Below, in pieces: positions 7,799-46,637 of a stretch of DNA of 64,000 bases. The notes under the pieces were generated by a model. That model did no database searches. It was not told where the DNA came from and saw nothing but the letters and a program-made list of their open reading frames with translations. Both the position numbers and the translations under genes were made by a program. Position 1 is the stretch's first letter. Every line of letters starts with the position of its first letter. Source of the DNA: an uncultured Gemmatimonadales bacterium (GTDB lineage: Bacteria; Gemmatimonadota; Gemmatimonadetes; Gemmatimonadales; GWC2-71-9); assembly GCA_963833905.1 (NCBI GenBank), contig CAWHZQ010000020.1:3293-67292 (forward strand), read 5' to 3'.

Positions 7799-8815
7799 AT
7801 GAGCACTTCCCTGCCCGCCCAGCGCCCGCGTCAGACCTTTCCCCAGATCTCCGGCGTCTCGTGGGAGCACCCGGCCGATCGCGCCGCGCTGCAGGCCCTG
7901 CGGTCGGTCCCCGGCGTGGACGAGGTCATCCGGAAGACGCTCGCCCTGCTGGGCGGCGAGCGGGGCGTGCGGCTCCTGTTCCAGGGCAACGCCGTCCGGG
8001 TGGGACCGGCGCAGTTTCCCAAGCTCTGGCACCTCCACAACGAGGCGGTCACGACCTTCGACTGGCCCACCGTGCCGGAGCTGTACGTCTCCCAGACCCC
8101 GTTCTTCAATGCCGGAGCCTACGGCATCGACCAGCCGTTCATCGTGGTCCACTCGGCCGCGCTCGAGCTGCTCGACGACGACGAGCTGCGGGTGCTGATG
8201 GCCCACGAGCTGGGCCACGTGATCAGCGGGCACGCGCTCTACCGCACCATCGCCGCCATCCTCGCCCTCATCAGTCTCGGCGCGCTGCCCATGCTCGCCA
8301 GCCTGGCCGTGCTTCCGGTCCGCCTCGCCTTTCTCGAGTGGTCGCGGAAATCGGAGCTGTCGGCCGACCGCGCCGGCCTGCTGGGCGCGCAGGACGTCGT
8401 GGCGGCGCACCGGCTCGACATGAAGATGGCCGGCGGCGGCCGCGGCGAGGCCTTCCGCGCGCAGCTCAACGTGGACGCGTTCATGCAGCAGGCCCACGAG
8501 TACGCCACGAGCGGCGAGGGGCTGGACGTCGTCTACAAGCTGCTCAGCACCCTGGCGCTCACGCATCCGATGCACACCGTCCGGGCCGCGGAGCTCCAGC
8601 GCTGGGTCACGAGCGGCGAATACGACCGGATCCTCCGCGGCGAGTACGCCCGCCGCGGGCCCGAGACCACCGACCGTCCGCTGCGCGACGACATGACGGC
8701 CGCCGGCAACTACTACGCGGGCGAGGCGCGGGAGCTCGCCACCCAGGTCGCGGACGCGGCCAAGCGCGCCGCCGAGCGCGCGCGCGACGCGTTCCGGAAC
8801 GCCCAGAAGTCGTGA
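7799..8815 (+). CDS. M48 family zinc metallopeptidase
   Basis: HELGH motif, ELSADRAG, THP. Confidence 0.9.
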   Translation: MSTSLPAQRPRQTFPQISGVSWEHPADRAALQALRSVPGVDEVIRKTLALLGGERGVRLLFQGNAVRVGPAQFPKLWHLHNEAVTTFDWPTVPELYVSQTPFFNAGAYGIDQPFIVVHSAALELLDDDELRVLMAHELGHVISGHALYRTIAAILALISLGALPMLASLAVLPVRLAFLEWSRKSELSADRAGLLGAQDVVAAHRLDMKMAGGGRGEAFRAQLNVDAFMQQAHEYATSGEGLDVVYKLLSTLALTHPMHTVRAAELQRWVTSGEYDRILRGEYARRGPETTDRPLRDDMTAAGNYYAGEARELATQVADAAKRAAERARDAFRNAQKS

Positions 8816-30146: not shown

Positions 30147-31604
<1,458 letters not shown>

Positions 31605-31711
31605 GCGCTCGAGGGACGGGGTAGCGGACCGGGTGATCGCTCCATACACGACGGCCCACCTGGGCCCGGGGAGGGCGGTCGGCAGGCCGGGAGTGGGCGG
31701 TTCCATCTCCG

Positions 31712-31739
31712 AGTGTAGGGCGGGGTCCCGGGAAATCAA
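31712..31739 (-). promoter_or_regulatory. Putative sigma-70 promoter for guaB (TTGATT-N16-TACACT)
   Basis: Near-consensus hexamers on the minus strand upstream of guaB. Confidence 0.5.
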
Positions 31740-31775
31740 GCGCCGTGCTTCCGGGCCGTCCGGCAACGAGGCGGC

Positions 31776-31804
31776 TGTCCGGTTCTCGAGCGACCCTGCG
31801 CGTC
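31776..31804 (+). promoter_or_regulatory. ECF promoter TGTCCG-N17-CGCGTC, copy A
   Basis: Same bipartite motif and spacer length at 35838 and 42187. Confidence 0.75.
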
Positions 31805-31898
31805 CTCTTCCCGAGGCGCATTGACTCTCAACGCCTCGGTGCGTCGCGGGGAAGACTCCGGGCGCACCATCCCGAAACAGGACTCAGGAGGACCTCAC

Positions 31899-32613
31899 AT
31901 GAGCACGCATCGCGTCTTGATAGCGGTTGGGATGGCCATCGCCAGCGGCTGCGCCGACCCAAGTGGCCCCACGCCACCGGTGATGATGTCATCCCATCCC
32001 GCGGACAGCACGGGCAGCGCAAACGGCGCGCCCGGTCCGGCTCGCCTTTCCGGCTCAGGATCCCGGCCCGCCGTTCTACAGCGAACTGGCGAGCGACTTC
32101 GTATTTCACACGGAGGAGGAAGCGGCCGTCGTGTTCTGGCGCTCGACGGCATGCATCCCCGACGATTTCAATCTCCTTCTCGCCCTGGACCTCACGCCCG
32201 CGTTTCCGAACGGCCCTCCACGGCCGTTCCTGTGCCCGCTCACGCTCGAAGGCGTCGCGACATGGCACGATCCCGCGACGGAACCCTTCCCGTACCTAGT
32301 GAAGGTTCGGGGATCCGGAGCGGTGCCGATCTGGTTCGTTGCATGGCCCGAATTGCAGGCCGCGATGAGCGACAGCATTCTGACGATCACCGACCTGGCG
32401 GGCCTGCCTTCGCTCCGGATCGGCTACGCGAGCTTCTACCAGGAGTCGGTGAGGAACTCGACGCAGGGACGGCGGCATCCCAGCAGCGCGACGGTGGCTC
32501 GTGGAACGATGGCCGACGGCGAGGAGCTTTCGACTGCACGTCAGCGAGAAGCTCCAGCGCGGCGAGCGGGACTACCTGAGCGTCCAGATCGAGATCGGCG
32601 GGAGACTAGCTGA
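31899..32613 (+). CDS. Hypothetical lipoprotein (frameshifted)
   Basis: AGGAGG RBS, lipobox ASGC; continues as PGPPFYS...VFWRSTACIPDDFNLL in another frame. Confidence 0.65.
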
Positions 32614-32736
32614 CCCCGCCATGAGGGAGGCGCGTGTGGTGAGCACCGGCAGAAACCAGACCACCCGGACGTGATAGTTGTGCCAGCGTCGTCGGATTAC
32701 GGCCAGGGCAGCGACGCTGAAATGCATCCAGTACCC

Positions 32737-33039
32737 TCAACGCTCCTCGATCGGCCGGAGCGCCGCTTCGGCCGCTCGGGTCATCCACCGATGCGCTGGG
32801 GGTGGCAGGTCGTAATCGGCAAGGAACCGGCGGTAATACTTACGCGCCGGACCCGACCGTCCCGCTGCCTCCTCCATCCGGGCCCGCTCGAAGGTGGCTA
32901 TGCCTGTGACGATCCGGGTGGCGTGCGTGATCTCGAAGCAGCGTTCGGGCGGCGTCGCCTCGCACCAGCGGAGCAGCCGCGCCGCGCGGACGTCCTCGCC
33001 CTCCTCGCTCAACCATCTCGCGGCGGCCAAACGGTCCAC
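32737..33039 (-). pseudogene. Orphan C-terminal TPR-like fragment
   Basis: FERARMEEAAGR..ARKYYRRFLADYD helical segment with no N-terminus or RBS. Confidence 0.4.
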
Positions 33040-33057
33040 ACACGCGCCCGAGAATGG

Positions 33058-35639
33058 TCACGGCGGCAGCCCGACCCGCGCCACGATCGTGGGGAAGCGC
33101 GGGTCTGTATGCAGCGAGGCCCACGTGGGTTCCGCCTTGATGAACTCGAGGCCCGGCTCCCGCTCGGCGGCCGCCTGCTCGAGCTCGGACAGGGCGGCCT
33201 CGGGTTCGCCCATTACGGCGTAGCCTCTGGACAGCTCCACGTGAGTTCCTCCCGGCAAGTGGAGCTGTCTAGCCGCCTGCAGCCCCGCAAGCGCCGTGGT
33301 GCGTGCTGCCGAATCGTGCCGGCCCCGCGCAATGGCTCGCACGATGGTAGACGTGTCGTGCAGCGTCTCGAGCAAGGCCAGCGCGTCGTCGCTGCGGTCC
33401 GACGCGAGGTAGAGGAAGAAAAGGTTGTGTGCCAGCGGGCCGGGGCTGGAATCCCGCGCGAGCCCACCCCGGAACACTGCGACGGCCTCGCCAGGCCGGC
33501 CCGCAGACCAGAGCGCCATACCGAGGATGTTGGTGGGAGGCCGGGCGAGCGGGTCGAGCTGGACGGCGGTCCGCGCTTCGACCAGCGCCTCAGGAAGAGC
33601 GCCAGGTGGCCAGCAGGTGCTCAGCCAGCCACTGGTGGGCGGTGGCGTAGCTGGGGTCGAGGGCGATCGCCCGCCGGACCTCCCGCTCCGAGCCGGCCCA
33701 GTCCCAGTAGCCGTACCGCAAGATCTGGTTGAGTGACGCGTGCGGCTCGGCCAGAGTCGAGTCCAAGGCGATCGCTCGGAGCGCCGCTGCTCTGGCCCGG
33801 GCGTATGCGGTGTCCCGGGGGACGCTGCCGACATGATAGTAGTCATAGAGCGCGTACACGTCCGCGAGCCCGGCCCAGGCCCGAGCAAAGGTGGAGTCGC
33901 GACCGAGAGCCTGGCGGAAGTACTCCGCGGCCTGCTCTAGGCTTTCAGGAGAGCGCCCGGTTCCACTCGGCCCGCCCAGCACGTACAGCCGGTAAGCCTC
34001 GAGGTCCGCGGTAGGCGCTCGCGCGACAGCGCGCTGAACGCCCCTCCGAGCGTCCCCCGCAAGACCTCGGCGACCTGCGCGGCCACGTCAGCCTGAAGCG
34101 GGAAGACGTCCGCGAGCACCGCTTCGTAGGGCTCCCCCCAGACGTGGGTACCGTCCGCGACCCGGATGAGCTCCGGCGTGATCCGCACTTGCCTCTGTCC
34201 GCTAGGGCTGACAGGCCGAACGGACAGTGCCATCGAGCACATAGTCGACCTGTAGCGCACGGCCGAAGGCGGGAGCGGTCTGCCTGAGCCGCGGTACTGG
34301 CGGGCGCTGCTCCGGGCGACCAGGCTGAAACGCGGCACTCGGGCAAGCCGGGTGGTGAGCTCCTCGCTCATGCCGTGAGCGAACGCGCGGTAGTTAGTGT
34401 CGTGCGACGCTCTCGAACGGGAGCACGGCGAGGCGTTATGCGGTTCCCGAACGTCGCACGGGCCGTTCTCGAGCGCGTTGTGTCTCTCCGGGCGTAGATA
34501 CACCCCGATCTGCGACGACGCACCCGTAGCCCGAGCGCGAGGGCTAGCGGAATAGTCCTGCGCCAGGCGTGGATTGTACCTGGCGAAGATGAGCCAGCCG
34601 GTTACGGGCGCTACGGCCCGTCGGAGGCTGTTTCGCGAGATCGTGTAGTCACTGCCATGGATCCGTTGCACGGTGCCACCAGGGCCCTGGCGAATTCCGC
34701 GGCCGTGATCTAAACCGATCGCCTCGGCGCCGGGGCCAGTGCCTTCGTGATGGCCAACTCGATCGTATTCCGGCACCTACGGGACGCCTGCATGCCGCAC
34801 GGATATGGGCACGTCACACGTGTGAAGTGCCGGGCCAGTGATGGCTTGCGGCGGTTGGGCCCGGTGAAGGGCGGCTCGCCTGCGAGCATCTCGTAGAGCA
34901 CGCAGCCGAGCGCGTAAATATCGGTCCGCGCGTCGACATCGGCGGTCGCCGAGTCGCCTGCTCGGGGCTCATGTAGGCCGGGGTGCCGATCGCGACGCCC
35001 GGTCTCGGTCAGGCTGCGACGGCTCCGGCAGCTGCCGCGAAGCGCGCGGGCGATCCCGAAGTCGGCAGACCAGCGCCTGCCCGTCGGCTGAGCAGGATGT
35101 TCCCCGGCTTGATGTCCCGGTGGACGACGCCCTGCGCGGTGGGCATAGTCCAGCGCTATCCGCCACCTCACGCGGCGATGCTTAACGCCTCAGCGATCGG
35201 CAGCTGCGGCTTCGCGAGCAAGCCGCTGGCGCAGCGACTCCCCGGCCACATAGCGGCATGACGTACCAGAGGCAGGCCCGTCGATTCACCGGAATCGAAG
35301 AGCGGGAGGATATGCGGATGCAGGAGTCGCGCGGCGACCTGAATCTCCTGGAGAAAGCGTTGCCGGCTGATCGAAGCCAGCGATCTCCGCGTACACGATC
35401 TTGAGGGCGACTTGTCGCCCATGTCGAGGATCCTCGGCGAGGTAGACGGCCGCCATGCCGCCGTGCCCGACCTCGCGGATGACGCGATAAGGCCCCAACA
35501 CCTCGCCGGGGCGCACCACCTGTCCCGCAATGGCATGCGCGGCGAACAGCGGCGCCGCCAGCTCGGCCGCCGGCCGGTCGAAGAATTCGAAGACAGGCTG
35601 TGGCGAGGACGGCGGGTCGCTGTCTGGCACTCGGGTCAT
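33058..35639 (-). pseudogene. Ser/Thr kinase with TolB-N-like and TPR domains, heavily disrupted
   Basis: [52 protein letters not shown] and TPRs across many frames; 34340-34710 is garbled. Confidence 0.75.
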
Positions 35640-35837
35640 GCGCGATCGATCTCGGGAAGAGGCGGGAGATGCCGGCTAGAGTGACGGCCGCAACCTACGC
35701 TATGAGGGTGGTACCACGGCGGCAAGGCCCGGGGACATCGCGACGATACTAACTGTCCAGATCCTGGCTGGATCTTCGCGCGGGTGAGCAACCCGCTGGA
35801 ACTCCGTCATCTTCCGGGGTGTCTCGTCCGTAGTCTA

Positions 35838-35867
35838 TGTCCGCCGGTCGTGGGATTCGTCGCGTCT
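35838..35867 (+). promoter_or_regulatory. ECF promoter TGTCCG-N17-CGCGTC, copy B
   Basis: Ends about 40 nt upstream of the subtilase start. Confidence 0.75.
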
Positions 35868-35905
35868 GCAGGTAGGACCGTTTCGATCCCACGACTCAGG
35901 AGGGC

Positions 35906-37468
35906 ATGATGATCGCCAGCACTCGCTGCCTGGTGGCAGGCGCAGGGATGTGGCTGTTCTTGTCCGGTTGCGGATCCGATCCGACTCCCCTGGAAGCCCC
36001 ACAGGCGCAGCCGGAATCTCCCTCCGCGTCGGTAGCAGGGACCACAGATATCAATGTTCTGCTCCGGGGTCCTGCCACTTCGGCGGACCGAAGCGAGCTC
36101 TCGAGGTACGGTGCGATCTACGCGGAAGTCGCCCAGATCAATGCCGTCCTCATGCGGGCGAGCGCCGACGACATTCCCAGAATACGGTCCTTGCCCTTCG
36201 TCGCTGCGGTGGGCCGGGACCAGCCCCGCGACGTGCCGCCGGAGGAGAACGTCGCAGCCGAGGGATTCATTCCGCTGGCACCTCACAATGTCTGGAATCT
36301 CGACGCCCTCAACGTCACAGACTTCGATCCCAGCTTCAGCGGTGCGGCACAGCGACAGGTCGCGTACGACGGGAAGGGAGTGGTCGTCACCTTCCTCGAC
36401 ACGGGCCTGATGCCGCTCTGGCCGTTCTACTTCGCCGGGAAGGACGTCGATACGCAACACTCGACGACTCTCATGGGCGGCGGCGAGAGCGGGAACGGGA
36501 CGGTCGTGAGCCCGAAGGACAAGTGGGAGCGCGACGTGCTGGGGCACGGCACGCACGTGTCCAGCGTCGTCCTGGGATACCGCTACGTCTCTGGATTCGC
36601 CGGCTCCTTTCAGGTGGATGGCATCGCACCCGCCGCTACCCTCGTCATGATCAAGGTGGCGAATCAGCGGTTCGGGCAGAGCTCCGCGATCGCGCAGGGA
36701 GTCGTGTATGCCACCGACCTTGTCCGCGCGGGAGGACCGCACGCGGGCAAGAGGATGGTCATCAATATGAGCCTCGGAGGACCTGAGCTCGATCCGGTGG
36801 AGCGGGCCGCGTTCGACTACGCGGTGCAGAATGGTGTTGTGCTGGTTGCGGCTGCCGGCAACAGCGGACCCACTGGCAATCTCATTTACCCCGCAGCCTA
36901 TGAGCCGGTGATCTCGGCCGCGGCGGCCGGTTGGGTCGGTGAGTGGGACGACCCAGGGGGAAACAACCCGTCCAATCCAGCCTGCGGCACGCTGCCGCTC
37001 GCTTCGGATCTACTGCAGCCCCTGGCGTTCTGGCGCCAGTGCGACGTACCTGATCCCTATGCTTCGGCCAACTTCTTCATTGCGCCATTCTCCTCGCGCG
37101 ACCCCGATGGGCTCGACAGTGGTGCGAACTACGATCTCGATGTCGCTGCACCGGGAGACGGGATCATCGGGCCCTGGGGATCGAACAACGGGCAGATCAG
37201 CTACCGCGCTACCGCGGGCACCTCGGAAGCGTCGCCGCATGTAGCCGGCATCGTTGCGCTGATGCTCCAGAAGAATCCCGGCATCACTCCGGCCCAGGTC
37301 GAGAGTTGCCTGGAGAGCGCGGCGCAACCGTTGATCTATTCGGGGCAACAGGCGCGGCCGTACTCGCCAAATCTGACCCCGGAGCCGCCGGTTACGATCC
37401 CGAGCTGGGGCAGCGACCGGAGCGGGCACGGGTTCATCACCGCTGATGCTGCGCTCGCCTGCGCGTAA
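35906..37468 (+). CDS. S8 family serine peptidase lipoprotein
   Basis: Lipobox LSGC; triad LDTG, HGTHV, GTSEASPHVAG; oxyanion AAAGN. Confidence 0.93.
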   Translation: MMIASTRCLVAGAGMWLFLSGCGSDPTPLEAPQAQPESPSASVAGTTDINVLLRGPATSADRSELSRYGAIYAEVAQINAVLMRASADDIPRIRSLPFVAAVGRDQPRDVPPEENVAAEGFIPLAPHNVWNLDALNVTDFDPSFSGAAQRQVAYDGKGVVVTFLDTGLMPLWPFYFAGKDVDTQHSTTLMGGGESGNGTVVSPKDKWERDVLGHGTHVSSVVLGYRYVSGFAGSFQVDGIAPAATLVMIKVANQRFGQSSAIAQGVVYATDLVRAGGPHAGKRMVINMSLGGPELDPVERAAFDYAVQNGVVLVAAAGNSGPTGNLIYPAAYEPVISAAAAGWVGEWDDPGGNNPSNPACGTLPLASDLLQPLAFWRQCDVPDPYASANFFIAPFSSRDPDGLDSGANYDLDVAAPGDGIIGPWGSNNGQISYRATAGTSEASPHVAGIVALMLQKNPGITPAQVESCLESAAQPLIYSGQQARPYSPNLTPEPPVTIPSWGSDRSGHGFITADAALACA

Positions 37469-37523
37469 GTCCGCCTGCGGGCGACCAGAATCAACCAACG
37501 AACTCGACGCTGCGGAGAGACTA

Positions 37524-38390
37524 ATGCGCCCTGTGCTCCGATGGGCCCTCAGAGGATTGGTCGTGATCGCCGGGTTGGCGTTGATCGTTTCCGGGCTGGT
37601 GTACGCGCTCTCGGAGCGCACCATGCGCCGCGTGTATCGGGAGCCGCTCCTGGCCCCCGTTCTGCCTGCGGATGGCGATGCGATCGTGGAGGGCCGGCGG
37701 CTGGCCCAGTTGCGCGGCTGTTCGGGCGGCTGCCACGGGAGCGAGATCGAGGGGAGCGTCTTCATGGACGAACCCTGCTCGCAAAGATCGTCGCGCCGAA
37801 CTTGAGCGCCGCCGTCCGGCGGTATTCGGACGCGGAGCTGGCTCGCATCATTCGACGCGGCGTGCGACCCGACGGCCGCACGCTCGTCGTCATGCCATCC
37901 GAAATGTTCAGCGCGCTCTCCGATGCGGACCTCGGGAAGATCCTGGCCTATCTGCACAGTGTGCCGCCGCATCCCGGCCCTGGCCGCGAGGTCCGGCTGG
38001 GCCCGCTCGCGCGTCTCGGGCTGGCGCTCGCGGAAGTACCAGACCGCCGCCCAGCTGGTGCGGCGCGCCGACTCCGTGGCGGCCACGTACCCGGCGCCGG
38101 ACGACCCTGTGGCCACCGGCGCCTACCTCGCCCGCACGGCCTGTACCGAATGTCATGGGCTCGACCTGAGCGGCGGTGAGAAGGCGCCAGACCTGCGCAT
38201 CGCGGCAGGCTATTCCGCCGAGGCGTTCACCCGCCTGCTGCGGACCGGGAAGGCGTCGGGTGATCGCGAGCTCGAACTGATGAGTCGGGTGGCGCGCCGG
38301 CGGCTTTCCCATTTCAACGATGCGGAGATCCAGGCACTGCGGGCCTATCTGCTGGCGAGGGCTGCGAGCGCACCGCGGCGGACGGACTAG
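37524..38390 (+). CDS. Membrane-anchored di-heme cytochrome c (frameshifted)
   Basis: N-terminal TM, CSGGCH, APNL...GVRPDG..MPS, CTECH. Confidence 0.85.
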
Positions 38391-41260
38391 GGAGTCCTGA
38401 GGAGTCGCGCCGCCTCGGCTCGCCGGCCACTTGCTTCGTAGTAGTCGGCCAGCCGGCGCGCAGCATCGTTGAGCCCCTTCCCGCTGTACGGGCTCGCTCG
38501 CAGCGTCTGATAGCTCCGGATCAGGAGCGGCTCGGCGTCGGGATTCCGACGCAGACCCGCGAGGCAGGCACCGAGCAGACTCTCGGTCTCCGCGGTCCGG
38601 AGGTCGCTGGTGCCAAGCTTCTCGTTCCGGATGGCGAGTGCTTCCCGCAAGCCGGGCTCCGCCTCGGCGAATCGCTTCTGATCGATGAGGAGGTTTCCGA
38701 GCGCGGTGAGGGCCTCGGCGATACGGGGATGGCCGGCCGGAAGCACCTTGCAGTAGATGACGACGGCTTCCCGGAGCGAGCGCTCGGCCTCGCGGTCGCG
38801 ATGCTCGCGATGCAGGAGAATGCCGAGGTTCCTCAGGCTCGCCGCGACAGCCTCAGCGGAGTCTCCGTAGATCCTGCGTCGCAGCGCCAGAGCTCCGCGG
38901 AGCAGGGTATCGGCTTCCTGGTACTTGCCTTCGTCGCTGAGAATCGCCCCCAGGTTGTTGCGGGTGACGACCGCATCCGCGTTCGACACTCCCACGCTAC
39001 GTGTAAGCGAGCCCAGGGCCTCTCGCGTCGCCGCCTCGGCCTCCGGGAGCTTGCCCATCCGGTAGTCGAGCACACCGAGCTGCGCCACCAGGGGAACCGT
39101 CAAGGGGCTTTCCGATCCCAGCAGGCGTCGTCGCATCTCGAGCGCCTCGACCAGCACCGACTCTGCTTGGGCGTACTTGCCTCTGTCCTCCAGGATCGAC
39201 TCCAGTTGCCAGAGGGAGACCGTCAGATCCGGATGCCCATGGGGATAGAGTCGCCGCTTACCCGCCACGACCTCGCGCTGCAGGCGCTCGGCGCCCTCTA
39301 GGTCACCACGCCCAGCCGTCAAGGCCGCGAGATCGTGCAGCACGGCCAGGACCTCCGGATGACCCGAGTCGTAGTGTCGGCGCAGGATCGCGAGCGCGGC
39401 CCGCTCCACCGAATCGGCCTGGTCGACCTTGCCGGCATAGAACAGCGTCACACCCAGGCTGTTCAGGTCCTTTGCCGTCTCGGGGTGGTCCTCCCCATAG
39501 GCAGCACTATCCAACGCCAGCGCTTCACGATAGCGTGCCTCCGCGACCGGATAGTTCGACTTCTTGGCCATGACGGATGCGAGGTTGCTCAGGGTCCGGG
39601 CCACTACGGAGTCGCGTTCCCCCCGCTTCCGTTGAATGTCGAGCGCGTGGCTCAGCATGGAATCCGCCCGGTCATACTCGCCGTTCTCGAACACCACGGT
39701 GCCCCAGGTCGCCAGCTCGTTGGCCTCCGCGAGACCTCCAGCGCCGTGGAGCCGTCGCGCCAGATCGATCGCCCGTCGGAGCAGCGAATCAGCCGCCTGG
39801 TAGTAGCCTAGATCGCGGTGCACCTGCCCCAGAAAGTCGAGCAGCTCGAGCTGGACGTCCGGCTGCCGCGCCAGCGCGCTGTCCACCCGACGAGTGCCGC
39901 GCTGGAGCAGCTCCCGGGCGGTGATCTCGCGACCGCGCGACTCGGCGGGCGTCGCCACGTTGAACAGATCCTTCACGAAATTCTTGACCTCGGTGGCCTT
40001 GATGGCCTCACGCGAGGCCACGCGCGCCTGCCATGCCGTGCCAGCGAGCCCGGCGACCAGCGCGAGGAAGAGCCCGGACGCCGCCCCGACCACCACTCGG
40101 TGCCGGCGCACGAATTTCCCCGTCCGGTAGAGACGGGAATCGGGGCGAGCGAGGACCGGTAGGCCGGCCGTGTAGCGCTGGAGGTCCGCCAGGAGGGCGT
40201 CGGCCGAGGAATAGCGCCGACCCGGGACCTTCTGCAGTGCCTTGAGGACGATTGTGTCCAGGTCTCCGCCCAGTTGCCGCCGGAGCCGCTCCGGCTCGGT
40301 CCCACGAGCCAGGCTTACGGCTGCCGGCGTGATCGCCTGCCGCGTGCCGTCGGCGAGGCTGATCTCCTCGGTGCGGGTGACCGCCGTGCTCGGCGCCTGC
40401 GGCACCTCCTCGCAGACAACATGCTCCAGCTCCTCGAGTGTGTGTCGCTGGAGCCGGTGGGCGCGGTGCCCGGTCAGCAGCTCGTATAGGATCGCGCCCA
40501 GGGCGTACACGTCGGTCGCCGTGGTCACCGGTTCCCCCCGAACCTGCTCCGGGGCGGCGTACTCCGGCGTCATGGCCCGCACGCCGGCCTCGGTCAGGGC
40601 CGTCGAGACCGCCCCCTCCTGCTCCACCAGCTTGGCGATCCCGAAGTCGAGAAGCTTCACCTGCCCTTCCGCGGTGGCCATGATGTTGGACGGCTTGAGA
40701 TCACGGTGGATGACGAGGCTCTGGTGCGCGTGGCGCACGGCACGGCAGACGTCCGAGAACAGCCGGAGCCGCTCGCCGATGCCGAGATGGTGTGCGTCGC
40801 AGTAGGAGGTGAGCGGCAGGCCCTCGACGTACTCCATGGCGAAGTACGGCTGCCCGTCGCCGCTCACGCCGCCATCCAGCAGCCGCGCGATGTGGGGATA
40901 GCTGAGCCGGGCCAGGATCTGCCGCTCGGCCAGGAAGCGGCGATGGATCTCGTCGGAGTCCATGCCGCGCTTGATGAGCTTGAGCGCGACGCGCTGCTCG
41001 AACTGCCCATCGGCCCGCTCGGCGAGATAGACCGTGCCCATCCCGCCCCGGGCCAGCTCCCGCAGGATCCGATACGGCCCGATCAGCATCCCCTCGAGTC
41101 GCGCGGACCGCTCGGCAGTGGCCTCGACGAGGAGCGGTGCGGCCAATGCCAACGCCGGCTGCTCCAGGAACCCGCCGCGCACCTCCGGGACGGCCTCGAG
41201 TCCCGCATCGAGCGCCTGCGTCAGCCGCCGCCAACGTCCGGCATGGTCGTCGCGGCTCAT
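38387..41260 (-). CDS. Membrane Ser/Thr protein kinase with TPR repeats (ECF-associated)
   Basis: [28 protein letters not shown]; TM segment; many C-terminal TPRs; ATGA-coupled to the ECF gene. Confidence 0.95.
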
Positions 41261-41826
41261 GGCGGCGCTTCGCCGAGCGTCTCGTACAGCCAGGCCTTGG
41301 CCCGGACCCAGTCCCGGCGCACGGTCCGGTCGGTGATCCCAAGTGCCGCCGCGGTCTCCTCCTCGGTGAATCCGCCGAAGAAGCGGCATTCGACGACCCG
41401 GCCGGCCCGTTCGTCCAACGCGGCCAGGCGGTCGAGCGCCTCGTCCACCGCCACGAGCGCGTCGGCGCGGGCGTCCAGCGACAGCATCTCCGCGTCCAGC
41501 GTCACCCGCTCACGGCGGCCGCCCCGCTTGCTCGCGAGGTGTTGCCGGGCGTAGTCGACGAGGATGCGGCGCATGGCCCGCGAGGCGATAGCGAAGAACT
41601 GGGTCCGGTCGGCCCACTGGGCGCGGGTCTGATCCACAAGCTTGAGGTAGGCCTCGTGCACCAGAGCCGTGGTACCGAGGGTGTGATCGGGGCGCTCCTG
41701 GCCGAGCTGGCGATGTGCGATGCGGCGAAGCTCGTCGTACACCAGTGGGAAGAGCCGATCGACCGCAGTGGCGTCTCCCTGGCGCCAGGCAGCGAGCAAA
41801 CCGGTCACATCGGGGTCGGAGGCCAT
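41257..41826 (-). CDS. ECF sigma factor, kinase-associated type (TIGR02999-like)
   Basis: [53 protein letters not shown]. Confidence 0.93.
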
Positions 41827-42186
41827 AACACGGGCCAGCAGCTTGCCGGGGGAACCGCAGTCGTGCCGCGGGGACGTTCGTCTCCGGCCGACTTCCGGCG
41901 CGTTCTCCGGCTGAGGGGAACAATGGTTCCCCTCAAAGATCAGAGCCGGCGTGCCGCGCCGCAACACCAGCGGGCGGGAGACCGGAGCTCGGGGTCGGTA
42001 GCGCTCAGCGGGGACGGGTGGCGGCAGAGGTACGGCAATGGCATGCATCACGTGGTGAACTTCAGGCGGCTGTCCCAGCCGTGCTGCTCCTCGTGCTGGC
42101 CGCGTGCACCGCCGATCCCACCGCTCCCAGAACGCGCCAACGGCATCGCCAGAGTTAAACGAGTAGCCGAGTCCTGAGGCGGCCCG

Positions 42187-42216
42187 TGTCCGGGTTGGCG
42201 TGCAAGTCCCGCGTCT
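42187..42216 (+). promoter_or_regulatory. ECF promoter TGTCCG-N17-CGCGTC, copy C
   Basis: Upstream of the cytochrome c peroxidase, divergent from the ECF gene. Confidence 0.75.
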
Positions 42217-42264
42217 AAGGATGAAGAGACACTCGGGCCGCCGACCTGTGAGACGAGCATCCTT

Positions 42265-43659
42265 ATGCAACTGACCCATTTGCCGAAATCGATCCCCATC
42301 GGTGGGCGCACACCCCCCTGGCGTGGAGCGCTGCCATTCCTGCTGCTCGCCGCCGCATGCGGCGGCGACGGTGCCGCGGCGCCTGCGGGCGTGGACTCCT
42401 ACCTGCACGCGCTGCTGGCCGGCGCTCACGCCACCGCCCTCGACCCCCCGCCAGCGCAACATCCAGCGCTGGTCGCCCTCGGCCGCGCCCTGATGTTCGA
42501 CAAGATCCTGAGTGGCAACCGCGACGTCTCCTGCGCCACTTGCCATGACCCGGTCGCCCACACCTCTGATGCGCTCTCGCTTTCGATCGGGACCGGTGGC
42601 GTGGGTGTGGGGCAGGCCCGAGCGCTGGGGACGGCCCGTCAGTTCATCGCCCGTAACGCCCAGGAGTTGTTCAACCGCGGGTATCCGGAGTTCACGTCGA
42701 TGTTCTGGGACGGGCGGGTGGCCCACAGGCCGGACGGGACCTTCGACACCCCGGCCGGAGCCGCGCTTCCTGCGGGGCTCAGCGGGCCACTGGCCGCTCA
42801 GGCGATGTTCCCGGTCCTTAACCGGCAAGAGATGCGGGGGCAGCCGGGCGACCTCGACCGGTTCGGCGCTCCGAACGAGCTCGCAGCGCTGCCCGACGAC
42901 GACCCCTCAGCGGCCTGGGCGGCGCTCATGCATCGTCTCCTCGCGATTGACGGCTACGTCACCCTGTTCCAGGCGGCTTACCCGGGAATCCCAGTCCAAC
43001 AGCTCGGCTTCCAACATGCCGCCAACGCGATCGCGGCCTTCGAGACCGAGGCGTTCGCCAGCACCGGCTCCCCCTTCGACGACTACCTGCGCGGCGCCGA
43101 TGATGCGCTTTCTGCGTCCGCGAAGCGGGGGGCACTGCTCTTCTTCAACACCCCCGGCTGCGCCGAATGCCACAGCGGGCCGCACCTGTCCGACCAGAAG
43201 TTCCACAACATCGGGGTGCCACAAGTTGGGCCGGGCTTCGGGCCGGCCGCGCCGCAGGACTTCGGGCGAGCCGGCGTGAGCGGCGATGCCGCCGAGCGCT
43301 ACCTCTTTCGCACTCCGCCGCTTCGGAACGTGGAGCTGACCGGCCCATGGATGCACGACGGGGTGTACACCACCCTGACGGCCGCCGTCCGCCATTACCT
43401 CGACCCCCGCAAGTCACTGACTGAGTTCAATCCCGCCGGACTCCGCGCGGAGCTACGGGAGACCTATCTCGACGACCCGGCCACCCTTCAGGCCATGCTC
43501 CAGACCCTCGATTCCAAGATGCGGCAGCCGGCCGATCTCAGCGACGCTCAGGTCGATGACCTTGTCGTCTTCCTGCACGCGCTGACCGACCCCGCCGCCA
43601 CCGATCTCGGGGCCGTGGCTCCGGCGTCGGTACCGAGTGGCCTTCCCGTCGGCGAGTAG
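42265..43659 (+). CDS. Di-heme cytochrome c peroxidase (CCP/MauG family) lipoprotein
   Basis: Lipobox AAAC; LGRALMFD, SCATCH, FWDGR, CAECH, FRTPPLRNV..TGPWMHDG. Confidence 0.92.
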   Translation: MQLTHLPKSIPIGGRTPPWRGALPFLLLAAACGGDGAAAPAGVDSYLHALLAGAHATALDPPPAQHPALVALGRALMFDKILSGNRDVSCATCHDPVAHTSDALSLSIGTGGVGVGQARALGTARQFIARNAQELFNRGYPEFTSMFWDGRVAHRPDGTFDTPAGAALPAGLSGPLAAQAMFPVLNRQEMRGQPGDLDRFGAPNELAALPDDDPSAAWAALMHRLLAIDGYVTLFQAAYPGIPVQQLGFQHAANAIAAFETEAFASTGSPFDDYLRGADDALSASAKRGALLFFNTPGCAECHSGPHLSDQKFHNIGVPQVGPGFGPAAPQDFGRAGVSGDAAERYLFRTPPLRNVELTGPWMHDGVYTTLTAAVRHYLDPRKSLTEFNPAGLRAELRETYLDDPATLQAMLQTLDSKMRQPADLSDAQVDDLVVFLHALTDPAATDLGAVAPASVPSGLPVGE

Positions 43660-43674
43660 GCACTTCACCCCTTC

Positions 43675-45141
43675 ATGCTGGAGCTACCGATGCTCTCCTT
43701 GCCCCACTTCCGGATGAAGCTGCGCCGAGCCGAGCCTGGGCTCGCCCTCCTGCTGGTCCTGCTCGCCTGCAATGAGGAGCCGCTGAGCGGACCCGCGTCC
43801 CACGATGTCCCCGCCGTGAGGGACATGGCGACGGCGCCGGGGAGCAGCAGCCCTCTGGTCCTCCGCGGCACCGTCGTCACTCCGAATGGCGTGATCAAGC
43901 ATGGATACGTCGGCATCGTGGGCGGCCGCATCGCGTCGGTCTCCGACAAGCAGCCGGACATCCCCGGCGCCCTGGTCGTCAATACCGACGGGATCGTACT
44001 GCCAGGCTTCGTCGACATCCACAACCATGTGCCCTGGAACGTGCTGCCCCGCTGGCATCCCGGCCAACCGTTCACGAATCGGTACCAGTGGCGTGTTGAC
44101 CCGTCGTACCTGCAGGCGGCCGGTGTCCCTTTTGATCACGTCTCTGCCTCGCATTTCTGCGAGATGAACGCCTGGGGCGAGCTTCGCGGCCTCGTCGGCG
44201 GGACCACCTCCATCATGGCAACGCACACGTTTCCCTGTATTCATGGACTGGTTCGCAACCTTGACCTGAACAGCGGATTCTACGGCACGACCGAGCTCAA
44301 TCTCGAGCACATCATCAACGTGCTCGGTGTTCCGCCGGCGACCGACCTCCTCGGGCGAGCACAGTTCGTCGGCGGCGCGCAATTCTACATTACGAACCCC
44401 TTCTATGAGGCCCTCGTGGTCCACGTTTCCGAGGGCACGGACGCGCTGTCGGAGGAGGAGTTCACCTTCCTGCAGACGGAGTCGCTGCTGAATCCGAAGG
44501 GGGTCATCATCCACGGCATCTCGCTTGGCCCGAGCGACTTCCAGGCGATGGCGGCAACGGGCACGGCGCTGGTCTGGTCGCCGCGGAGCAACCTGGAGCT
44601 GTACGGGACGACGGCAAACATCGCCGCCGCGCTGGATGCCGACGTCGAGATCGCCCTCGCACCCGATTGGGCGATCACCGGCAGCAGTAACGTGCTCGAC
44701 GAGCTCAAGACAGCGGGCCAGTGGAATCGAGGGCACCTGGGAGGGCGACTGACTCCACGCCAGCTCGTCGACATGGTCACTTCAGTGCCCGCGCACGTTA
44801 CGGGAGTCGACGACGAAGTCGGGACCCTGCGCGCCGGATTGCGAGCCGATGTGCTGGTGCTCCGCGGGGACCCCAACGACGCCTATAGCTCGGTGTTGCG
44901 GGCGAACGCCGCCGACGTGCAACTGGTGATGATCGAGGGAGTACCGCTCTACGGTGACGGTGCCCTGATGCAGAAGTTCTGGGCACCGGCCGATCTCGAG
45001 GCAGTGAGCGTGACGAACGCATCGAAGGTGCTGGCGACGCCAGCGGCAGGTCTGTCGGTCAACGGGTTGGCCGCCACCCTGCAAGCGGCACTTCAGGCCG
45101 AAGGAACGTCGCTCGCACCGCTCACGGAGGTCGGTCCGTGA
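43675..45141 (+). CDS. Amidohydrolase family lipoprotein
   Basis: Lipobox LLAC; PGFVDIHNH, HVSEG, IIHG, WSPRSN, APDW. Confidence 0.85.
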   Translation: MLELPMLSLPHFRMKLRRAEPGLALLLVLLACNEEPLSGPASHDVPAVRDMATAPGSSSPLVLRGTVVTPNGVIKHGYVGIVGGRIASVSDKQPDIPGALVVNTDGIVLPGFVDIHNHVPWNVLPRWHPGQPFTNRYQWRVDPSYLQAAGVPFDHVSASHFCEMNAWGELRGLVGGTTSIMATHTFPCIHGLVRNLDLNSGFYGTTELNLEHIINVLGVPPATDLLGRAQFVGGAQFYITNPFYEALVVHVSEGTDALSEEEFTFLQTESLLNPKGVIIHGISLGPSDFQAMAATGTALVWSPRSNLELYGTTANIAAALDADVEIALAPDWAITGSSNVLDELKTAGQWNRGHLGGRLTPRQLVDMVTSVPAHVTGVDDEVGTLRAGLRADVLVLRGDPNDAYSSVLRANAADVQLVMIEGVPLYGDGALMQKFWAPADLEAVSVTNASKVLATPAAGLSVNGLAATLQAALQAEGTSLAPLTEVGP

Positions 45142-45152
45142 AGGCACTGGCG

Positions 45153-46637
45153 TCAGGTCCGTGCGGAGGCGCTCCTCCTCCACAAGAGATACACCGGCAC
45201 CCCGCTCGCCACGATCAGCAGGCCTGGCCAGGTAAAGAGCGGCTTCTCGAGGAGTAGAATGACCATCAGCGCAGCGTTCGCTATCAGGTAGAGCGCCGGC
45301 AGCACGGGATACCCGAAGGCCCGGACAGGCCGCGGCAGGTCGGGTCGGGTCCGTCGGAGGCGGAACAGCGCGATGGTCGTCAGGAAGTAGAACACGATCG
45401 CCGCGAAGATCACGTAGTCCAGCAGCTGCCCGTACGTGCCACTGATGCAGAGCACGCTGGCCCAGACGGCCTGCGCGATCAGCCCGAAGATCGGCGTGCG
45501 GTAGATCGGGTGGAGCGTGCCCGCCCGCTGGAAGAAGAGGTCGTCGCGCGCCATCGCGTAGTAGACCCGCGGGCCGGAGAGAATGAGCCCGTTGTTGCAG
45601 CCGAAGGTCGAGAGCAGGATCGCCACCGCCATCACCGTCGCCGCACCGGTGCCGACGGCCACCTCGATGGCCGCGGTGGCTACCCGGTCCTGCGCCGCAT
45701 ACTGGAGCCCGCGGGCGAGCACGTCGGCGCCCTGCGGGTTGCCGCTGAACGGGAGCATGTTGAGATAGGCGACGTTGGCGAGGATGTAGAGCAGGCTCAC
45801 CGCCCCGGTGCCAATCGCGAGCGCGCGGGGCAGGTTCCGGGTGGGATTCTGCACCTCGGCGGCCGCGAACGTGACGTTGTTCCACGCATCGCTCGAGAAC
45901 AGCGAGCCCACCATGGCCGCCCCCAGCACCGGGATGATGGCGATCGACCAGTCCCCTGTCCCCCAGAAGTCGGCGAAGTTGGCGGCGGCGATGTCCGGCT
46001 GGCGGAACAGCGTAAGCCCCAGCAGCACGAGCACGGCGAGCGCCCCGATCTTGGCGACGCTGAAGACCGTCTGGATCGCCGCGCCGAGCGTGACGCCGCG
46101 CATGTTGGTGGCCGTGAGCACGGCGATCATGACGATCGCCACGACCCGCTGCGGCGAGAGGCCGAGCTGGATGGCCTCGGACGCGCCGGGGAGCCGGAGC
46201 TGCCCGAGCCGCAGGAACACGTCGGGCGAGACGCCGGGCACCAGGACGCCCAGGAACTTCGCGAACGCCACCGCGACCGCGGCGATGGTGCCGGTCTGAA
46301 TGACAGCGAAGAGGGTCCAGCCGTAGAGGAAGCCCGCGAGCGGCGAGAGTCCTTCCCGGAGGAACACGTATTGGCCGCCCGCCTTGGGCATCATCGCGGC
46401 AAGCTCGGCATACGCCAGTGCGCCGGTGACGGTCATGGCGCCAGTCACGATCCAGACCAGCAACAGCGCGCCCGGTCCCCACTGGCCCACCTGCCGGCCG
46501 ATGTCCGCCGAGACAATGAAGATGCCGGAGCCGATCATCGAGCCCACGACGAGCGAGATCGCCGCCAGCGGACCGATGCCGCGGATGAACTCCGCCGAGG
46601 ACGAGCTGGCGGGCTGGGCCTTCGCCGTGGTAGCCAC
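45153..46637 (-). CDS. APC family amino acid permease
   Basis: GSMIGSGIF, YAEL..MP.AGGQY, EVQNP.RNLP. Confidence 0.93.
   Translation of the reverse strand: MATTAKAQPASSSSAEFIRGIGPLAAISLVVGSMIGSGIFIVSADIGRQVGQWGPGALLLVWIVTGAMTVTGALAYAELAAMMPKAGGQYVFLREGLSPLAGFLYGWTLFAVIQTGTIAAVAVAFAKFLGVLVPGVSPDVFLRLGQLRLPGASEAIQLGLSPQRVVAIVMIAVLTATNMRGVTLGAAIQTVFSVAKIGALAVLVLLGLTLFRQPDIAAANFADFWGTGDWSIAIIPVLGAAMVGSLFSSDAWNNVTFAAAEVQNPTRNLPRALAIGTGAVSLLYILANVAYLNMLPFSGNPQGADVLARGLQYAAQDRVATAAIEVAVGTGAATVMAVAILLSTFGCNNGLILSGPRVYYAMARDDLFFQRAGTLHPIYRTPIFGLIAQAVWASVLCISGTYGQLLDYVIFAAIVFYFLTTIALFRLRRTRPDLPRPVRAFGYPVLPALYLIANAALMVILLLEKPLFTWPGLLIVASGVPVYLLWRRSASART

Follow-up and report, generated by a model that had tools for sequence, protein, structure and literature searches.

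A sequence motif beside a kinase-coupled sigma factor gene of an uncultured Gemmatimonadales bacterium is very probably the promoter of three nearby surface-protein gene sets

Extracytoplasmic function (ECF) sigma factors that are activated by a kinase have been studied in two or three proteobacteria only, and the literature examined says little about their target promoters. According to the accessible parts of these reports, co-occurrence with a kinase of the Hanks type is characteristic of the ECF43 group (PMC13147305), and the acidic DAED patch in region 2.2 of the sigma2 domain is replaced in this group by a QTTA consensus that contains a phospho-acceptor threonine (PMC13147305; PMC8999054). 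Direct phosphorylation has been shown for EcfK of Xanthomonas citri (PMC13147305). EcfP of Vibrio parahaemolyticus is intrinsically inactive, with DAED changed to an uncharged STTA, and phosphorylation of the second threonine restores binding to the polymerase (PMC8999054; PMC8103513). Here we describe a locus from an uncultured Gemmatimonadales soil bacterium, located in a 64,000-nucleotide stretch of DNA (GenBank contig CAWHZQ010000020.1, positions 3,293 to 67,292) that is referred to below as the window. The locus holds a gene for an ECF sigma factor next to a gene for a Ser/Thr kinase with tetratricopeptide repeats (TPRs), as well as a motif, TGTCCG-N17-CGCGTC, which judging from its sequence and position is very probably the promoter for three nearby surface-protein gene sets.

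The window contains three exact copies of the motif, all on the forward strand: P1 at 31776–31804, P2 at 35838–35866 and P3 at 42187–42215. The sequence-only reading, an earlier model-made annotation of the window, had reported three sites with identical hexamers, a 17-nt spacer and unrelated spacer sequences, and the pattern was recovered exactly at all three coordinates. P1 lies between genes, with an AGGAGG ribosome site and then an ATG after it. The -10 block ends 94 nt before the start codon at P1 (a lipoprotein gene), 39 nt before it at P2 (an S8 protease gene) and 49 nt before it at P3 (a peroxidase gene); P3 is divergent from the sigma gene, as are its counterparts beside orthologous sigma genes. 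The three sites share the two fixed hexamers, the invariant 17-nt gap and one orientation, and the extended consensus is TGTCCG-gTT...-CGCGTC-t. Because the spacers and the flanks are mutually unrelated, the sites are not copies of a longer repeat. Dinucleotide shuffles of the window gave a mean of 0.14 matches, and three or more were reached in 0 of 100. The geometry as a whole, with its constant hexamers and gap, free spacers, common orientation and 39–94 nt to the ATG, fits a putative promoter read by a sigma factor. The -35 block of a typical ECF promoter is GGAAC-like; that of the window is TGTCCG.

When both strands of the genome were searched (24 contigs, 3,599,638 bases, with the window on contig C20), five exact copies of the motif were found, three of them within a 10.4-kb stretch of the island formed by the sigma and kinase genes and their neighbors. 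Relaxing the pattern to NGTCCG-N17-CGCGTC gave 18 matches, six of which were placed outside open reading frames (ORFs) by a crude gene caller. Three of these six are P1, P2 and P3; the others lie, by eye, inside reading frames that start just upstream of each match. For two one-letter variants of the motif, all five genome matches are inside ORFs. A weight matrix revealed a single extra match above 20 bits (C14:79984), within the 3' end of a histidine-kinase-like frame. Enrichment upstream of genes had been named earlier as a check on the motif, and within this genome a non-coding placement is specific to the three island sites. Further members of the regulon elsewhere in the genome were considered and rejected, as the relaxed patterns and the weight matrix gave no convincing extra site. 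A de novo search for exact 5-mer dyads in 19 upstream regions returned ATGTC-N19-CGCGT as its top result, present in four regions; this was equaled by 3 of 100 shuffles, and the search has little power.

The motif also accompanies related sigma genes of other genomes. Copies with no more than one mismatch adjoin sigma-kinase pairs at five loci, where the sigma factor is 81% (L001), 69% (L002), 65% (L004), 62% (L005) or 57% (L012) identical to that of the window. At L001, the closest relative, one site precedes an amidohydrolase lipoprotein gene and another the kinase gene. One site at L002 is situated before the gene of a 157-residue lipoprotein and one before a multicopper oxidase gene, and the two sites at L004 precede a lipoprotein gene and an OmpA-family gene. 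L005 has one site, before a DUF4394 lipoprotein gene, and L012 also has one. The pattern taken from the window alone was then applied to 39 other sigma genes, over 400 nt of upstream sequence and on the strand that leads away from the gene; L002 and L005 were excluded from this test because their gene order differs. Sites with up to two mismatches were present at 10 of the 39 loci, and three of these had a site with one mismatch, which was reached by none of 200 shuffles. On the opposite strand of the same loci, a single site with up to two mismatches was found. The scan near TIGR02999-type sigma genes that had been suggested earlier therefore finds the motif kept beside orthologous sigma genes, at 8 of the 13 loci with at least 60% sigma identity and at 2 of the 26 below that value. 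In a quick tree, the carriers of the motif form one clade. Taken over the relatives and a paralogous locus of the same genome, 14 sites were collected: 10 before lipoprotein genes, two before genes of other signal-peptide proteins (the multicopper oxidase and the OmpA-family protein) and one before a kinase gene, with one undecided.

Inverted repeats are present around two of the window sites. A perfect 10-nt inverted repeat (35847–35856 and 35886–35895) brackets the -10 block of P2, and a 12-nt repeat of 92% identity (42178–42189 and 42231–42242) brackets P3. These repeats could be operators, and the motif might be the site of another regulator that binds DNA, or else a repeat that arose by chance or is a relic, rather than a sigma promoter. 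The sequence of the repeats is not common to the three sites, whereas two blocks with a fixed 17-nt gap, a free spacer, one orientation and promoter-like distances are what a sigma factor reads, and the motif tracks one sigma clade across genomes. We consider this explanation highly improbable.

The sigma gene (41257–41826, reverse strand) codes for a protein of 189 residues that scores 221.6 bits against TIGR02999 (cut-off 126.15) and matches PF07638 over residues 6–183 with an expect value (E) of 8.1e-55. We take TIGR02999 and ECF43 to be largely coincident. The kinase gene (38387–41260, reverse strand) codes for a Hanks-type Ser/Thr kinase of 957 residues with a C-terminal TPR region (Pkinase, E 6.2e-41; TPR_12, E 5.4e-58). 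Its HRD, DFG and APE motifs are present and the catalytic motifs are intact. A single hydrophobic helix at residues 387–409, preceded by basic residues, is followed by about 550 residues rich in TPRs, of which Pfam counts 6–8 stretches over about 450 residues. Since there is one helix and it is preceded by basic residues, the TPR part is predicted to lie outside the cytoplasm. The stop codon of the sigma gene overlaps the start codon of the kinase gene as ATGA, which suggests that the two proteins are made together. The earlier description of an ECF sigma factor coupled to a transmembrane kinase with TPRs is thus borne out, and so is the reported lack of an anti-sigma gene: no anti-sigma Pfam domain was found in the 16 ORFs scanned between 30147 and 46637, in a domain search that covers known families only.

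In place of the acidic DAED, region 2.2 of the sigma factor contains GTTA (Thr-52 and Thr-53), followed by LVHEAYLKL. The HTLGTT stretch that had been singled out earlier corresponds to the position of the ECF43 phospho-acceptor threonine as given in the accessible part of PMC13147305. Among 38 aligned homologues, the pattern xTTA or xxTA/G is conserved in region 2.2, and the third-place threonine is kept in 37; the exception is L024, which has TA there. As read from the sequence, every feature of ECF43 membership that sequence can test is present at the locus.

No motif with up to two mismatches was found upstream of the sigma-kinase operon on the strand of the sigma gene, and autoregulation of the sigma factor was rejected on this ground. 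At 41912–41935, 86–109 nt ahead of the start of the sigma gene, there is a perfect 10-nt palindrome with a 4-nt center. No T-run follows, and the palindrome may serve the sigma-kinase operon as an operator or as a leader hairpin. If it is an operator, the sigma factor could read the promoters and yet be switched by its own transcription, or by another partner, and not by the kinase. The arrangement in the closest relative would agree with this, as the kinase gene is inverted there and is not co-transcribed with the sigma gene. In the window, by contrast, the two genes are coupled through the ATGA overlap. A kinase-TPR gene also adjoins the sigma gene in all of the close relatives annotated (L001, L002, L004, L005, L012 and L017), and the acidic patch is lost while the threonine is kept, as in the ECF43 cases demonstrated in the accessible part of PMC8999054. 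Control of the sigma factor by something other than the kinase is therefore very unlikely in our view.

The inverted kinase gene of the closest relative (L001, 5744–8922) is convergent with the sigma gene and lies behind a copy of the motif with one mismatch. The kinase of the window is 58% identical to its product over the full length. There, the sigma factor may control the kinase itself.

The genome contains five strong PF07638 genes. One of these, on contig C4 (locus L017), codes for a sigma factor that is 63% identical to that of the window and is likewise followed by a kinase gene. The C4 module has two TGTCCG-N17-CGCGAT sites, at 8345 and 9649 on the reverse strand, before two paralogous lipoprotein genes; this variant has five matches in the genome. 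A paralogous sigma factor had been raised earlier as a possible cognate of the window sites. This caveat is real, yet weakened: the 63% identical paralogue uses the same -35 hexamer, and the -10 block of its own promoters is a different one. The three window sites could nonetheless be read mainly, or also, by the C4 sigma factor, in which case adjacency would be partly coincidental and the modules would cross-talk. The C4 and window sites have the -35 hexamer and the letters after it in common (TGTCCGGTTT), and the recognition helix of region 4.2 is nearly the same in the two sigma factors, with few differing positions. However, the two promoters of the C4 module end in CGCGAT and the three of the window in CGCGTC, the sigma2 stretch after region 2.2 differs between the two proteins, as does the -10-reading part of sigma2, and orthologues of the window sigma factor keep CGCGTC/T sites right beside them in other genomes. 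Reading by the paralogue is, on this evidence, unlikely.

The comparison fits a shared reading of the -35 block combined with a predicted module-specific reading of the -10 block. A broader idea would be that the kinase-coupled sigma modules of this Gemmatimonadales clade are plug-in units with private -10 dialects and freely swapped cargo behind unchanged promoters, as with the peroxidase gene that stands between P3 and the amidohydrolase gene. This is tentative and we hold it to be doubtful; an orthologue of the C4 sigma factor in another genome has CGCGTT, which weakens the point about -10 dialects. If the idea is true, the difference between CGCGTC and CGCGAT would keep the small local regulons of paralogous modules apart, and the motif before the inverted kinase gene of L001 would create a positive feedback loop that is absent in the window.

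Our preferred explanation, which we regard as likely, is that the locus is a self-contained module of the ECF43 type, in which a sigma factor phosphorylated by its kinase would read the motif and drive the three adjacent units. The sigma factor and the kinase would be produced together from their overlapping genes. The newly made sigma factor is expected to have no activity, since GTTA stands in place of the acidic patch that normally grips RNA polymerase. The kinase would span the inner membrane, the catalytic domain facing the cytoplasm and about 550 residues of TPRs lying outside. On an envelope signal, which the TPRs would sense, the kinase would phosphorylate the sigma factor, most likely on Thr-53. 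The phosphorylated sigma factor would then bind core polymerase and read TGTCCG(gTT)-N17-CGCGTC(t), with transcription starting at P1, P2 and P3. This would switch on the 235-residue lipoprotein (unit 1), the S8 protease lipoprotein together with a membrane-anchored dihaem cytochrome c (unit 2), and the dihaem peroxidase lipoprotein together with an amidohydrolase lipoprotein (unit 3). Because the sigma-kinase operon is without a motif site, the switch is expected to act after translation and not by autoregulation.

A number of points weigh against this explanation. A search for sequencing runs that carry the stretch listed no RNA run. The motif was not found at five of the 13 loci with at least 60% sigma identity (L003, L006, L011, L050 and L056), where degenerate look-alikes only are present, so that its exact wording is a dialect of a sub-clade. 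The genomes of the relatives are themselves related, and the counts overstate independence. The weight matrix was built with the window's own sites included, which makes their high scores circular. With a genome completeness rating of 73.7%, targets of the regulon elsewhere may be missed. It is possible that the C4 sigma factor, with its nearly identical region 4.2 helix, could cross-read the window sites. The lipoprotein calls in this work are putative, being lipobox patterns read by eye from the translations. Finally, in X. citri the equivalent threonine is dispensable and linker sites matter, according to the accessible part of PMC13147305, so Thr-53 may be joined by other sites, or a different site may be the key one.

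The first predicted target gene (31899–32613, forward strand) codes for a 235-residue lipoprotein of an unnamed family with a signal peptide ending in ...IASGC. It has no Pfam match, and an atlas lookup was uninformative. The predicted model is confident and beta-rich, with a predicted local distance difference test (pLDDT) score of 84.4 and a predicted template modeling (pTM) score of 0.76. No Foldseek match was obtained for it at E up to 0.001. The best result of a wide structure search (Z 5.7, root-mean-square deviation 5.2, 105 aligned) is within the stated background range of the tool. Among the 60 relatives searched, the only other homologue is 41% identical and is found at L062 (G018:C16, approximately 1266–1501). 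There, it is divergent beside a TIGR02999-type sigma gene (52% identical), without this promoter wording.

P2 is followed by the gene of an S8 subtilase lipoprotein of 520 residues (35906–37468, forward strand; PF00082, E 1.6e-35), with an N terminus reading ...LSGC and visible D/H/S motifs. The next gene (37524–38390, forward strand) codes for a membrane-anchored dihaem cytochrome c with two CxxCH motifs (PF13442/PF00034), which has 288 residues after indel corrections. The cytochrome c and kinase genes are convergent, with an overlap of a few bases between their stop codons at 38387–38390, so there is no room for a terminator between them.

P3 precedes the gene of a dihaem peroxidase lipoprotein of the cytochrome c peroxidase (CCP)/MauG family (42265–43659, forward strand; 464 residues; PF03150, E 1.1e-36; N terminus ...AAAC). 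Against TIGR03981 it scores 268 bits, under the cut-off of 340. The gene that begins 15 nt past the end of the peroxidase gene codes for an amidohydrolase-family lipoprotein of 488 residues (43675–45141, forward strand; PF01979, E 4.1e-17; ...LLAC), which shares 74% identity with the product of the gene directly 3' of the motif in L001; there the amidohydrolase gene directly follows the promoter, whereas here the peroxidase gene intervenes. The four putative lipobox ends (...IASGC, ...LSGC, ...AAAC and ...LLAC) are compatible with a permissive lipobox pattern. Just upstream of P3, a short frame (42066–42160, forward strand) contains a hydrophobic run resembling a lipoprotein signal, ...AAC and then an early stop; it may be what is left of a former first gene that lay behind a divergent promoter.

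The families and the order of these genes are as described in the sequence-only reading, except that the cytochrome c has an N-terminal membrane anchor and no lipobox. Its phrase for the physiological role, a surface proteolysis and redox toolkit, describes the cargo fairly but is not a finding.

In the window sequence as it stands, three genes are frameshifted: those of the lipoprotein, the cytochrome c and a second kinase. The island was compared with contigs from four public metagenome runs of soil or rhizosphere. Those of three separate studies are near-identical to the window; in one case, for example, 2 letters differ over 1866 bases and in another 1 over 3151. Among the differences listed, the single-base ones at 31893, 32034, 32523, 32604, 37772 and 38032 are the places of the frame breaks. 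The lipoprotein gene of the window has extra single bases at 32034, 32523 and 32604, which are absent from the short-read contigs of the three studies, and the one-base differences in the cytochrome c gene (37772 and 38032) were also seen in contigs of three studies. When corrected, the lipoprotein frame is open for 235 residues and the cytochrome c frame for 288 residues, to the same stop at 38390. A public 235-residue protein, P0001, is 100% identical over the 162-residue piece queried. The possibility that the two genes are decayed pseudogenes was rejected, as independent contigs restore the frames and an intact 235-residue lipoprotein is public. The frameshifts in these two genes are probably assembly errors of the window. 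The lipoprotein and cytochrome c genes are broken in the window as written, and intact in the near-identical public assemblies.

The short-read pieces that cover the S8, sigma, peroxidase and amidohydrolase genes are gap-free among the differences listed. On the same basis, single-base differences cluster at 31893–35100 and 37772–38032, and about 9 kb of neighboring genes have none. The assembly of the window seems to contain local indel errors, and errors of this kind would also reduce the gene calls in the rest of the genome, and perhaps its completeness estimate.

The second Ser/Thr kinase gene, with a TPR tail (32737–35639, reverse strand), is broken as written and gives Pkinase and TPR fragments. 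The kinase motifs fall in three different frames, a stop is in frame near 33060, and each short-read piece shows 1–3 gaps relative to the window. A search for a full-length protein identical to it gave nothing closer than 54%. It has no motif upstream and is probably outside the regulon.

The island is flanked by genes for inosine monophosphate (IMP) dehydrogenase (30147–31766) and an amino-acid permease (45153–46637), both on the reverse strand. Rfam gave no match at E up to 0.1 within 31500–45300. One sigma-70-like promoter and one intrinsic terminator were found, no more than in shuffles. The base composition of the island (0.64–0.71) is slightly lower than the genome mean of 0.70, and being near that mean it makes no case for recent transfer.

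In a soil phylum of uncultured type, the locus provides a predicted promoter that can be read and a small, local regulon open to testing, and it supplies promoter, sigma and kinase parts for heterologous tests. Together with its paralogue in the same genome, which differs only at the -10 block, it forms a convenient pair for studying how related sigma factors avoid cross-talk. The picture of how kinase-activated sigma systems work is unchanged, and the result is a sound, fairly ordinary regulon prediction.

Classical pairs of an ECF sigma factor and an anti-sigma factor, such as RpoE-RseA, resemble the locus in their two-domain sigma factor and in a two-block promoter before genes of envelope proteins. 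Unlike these, the window has no anti-sigma gene and no motif before the operon of the sigma factor itself, so neither sequestration nor autoregulation applies. No literature joining ECF43 with Gemmatimonadetes was found. The sigma homologues of Xanthomonadales-type genomes (L030 and L032) are 45–46% identical to the sigma factor of the window.

The accessible parts of the reports on the two ECF43 systems allow a closer comparison. Like the locus described here, EcfK of X. citri is a sigma factor without an anti-sigma factor, beside a membrane Ser/Thr kinase, PknS, that has C-terminal periplasmic TPRs, and both sigma factors have a threonine in the region 2.2 patch (PMC13147305). The phylum is different, the window belonging to Gemmatimonadota. 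The patch reads QATE in EcfK and GTTA, with no acidic neighbor, in the window; PknS has three TPRs, compared with the 6–8 Pfam stretches of the window kinase; and the regulon of EcfK is a type VI secretion system, while that predicted for the window consists of local lipoprotein and redox genes. No consensus for the EcfK promoter was found in the accessible part of PMC13147305. EcfP and PknT of V. parahaemolyticus, also ECF43, share the proposed mechanism, and GTTA of the window stands at the place of STTA in EcfP. EcfP responds to polymyxin and confers resistance, and nothing in the window points there. EcfK/PknS is thus the closest known system to the window locus, and EcfP/PknT is the next.

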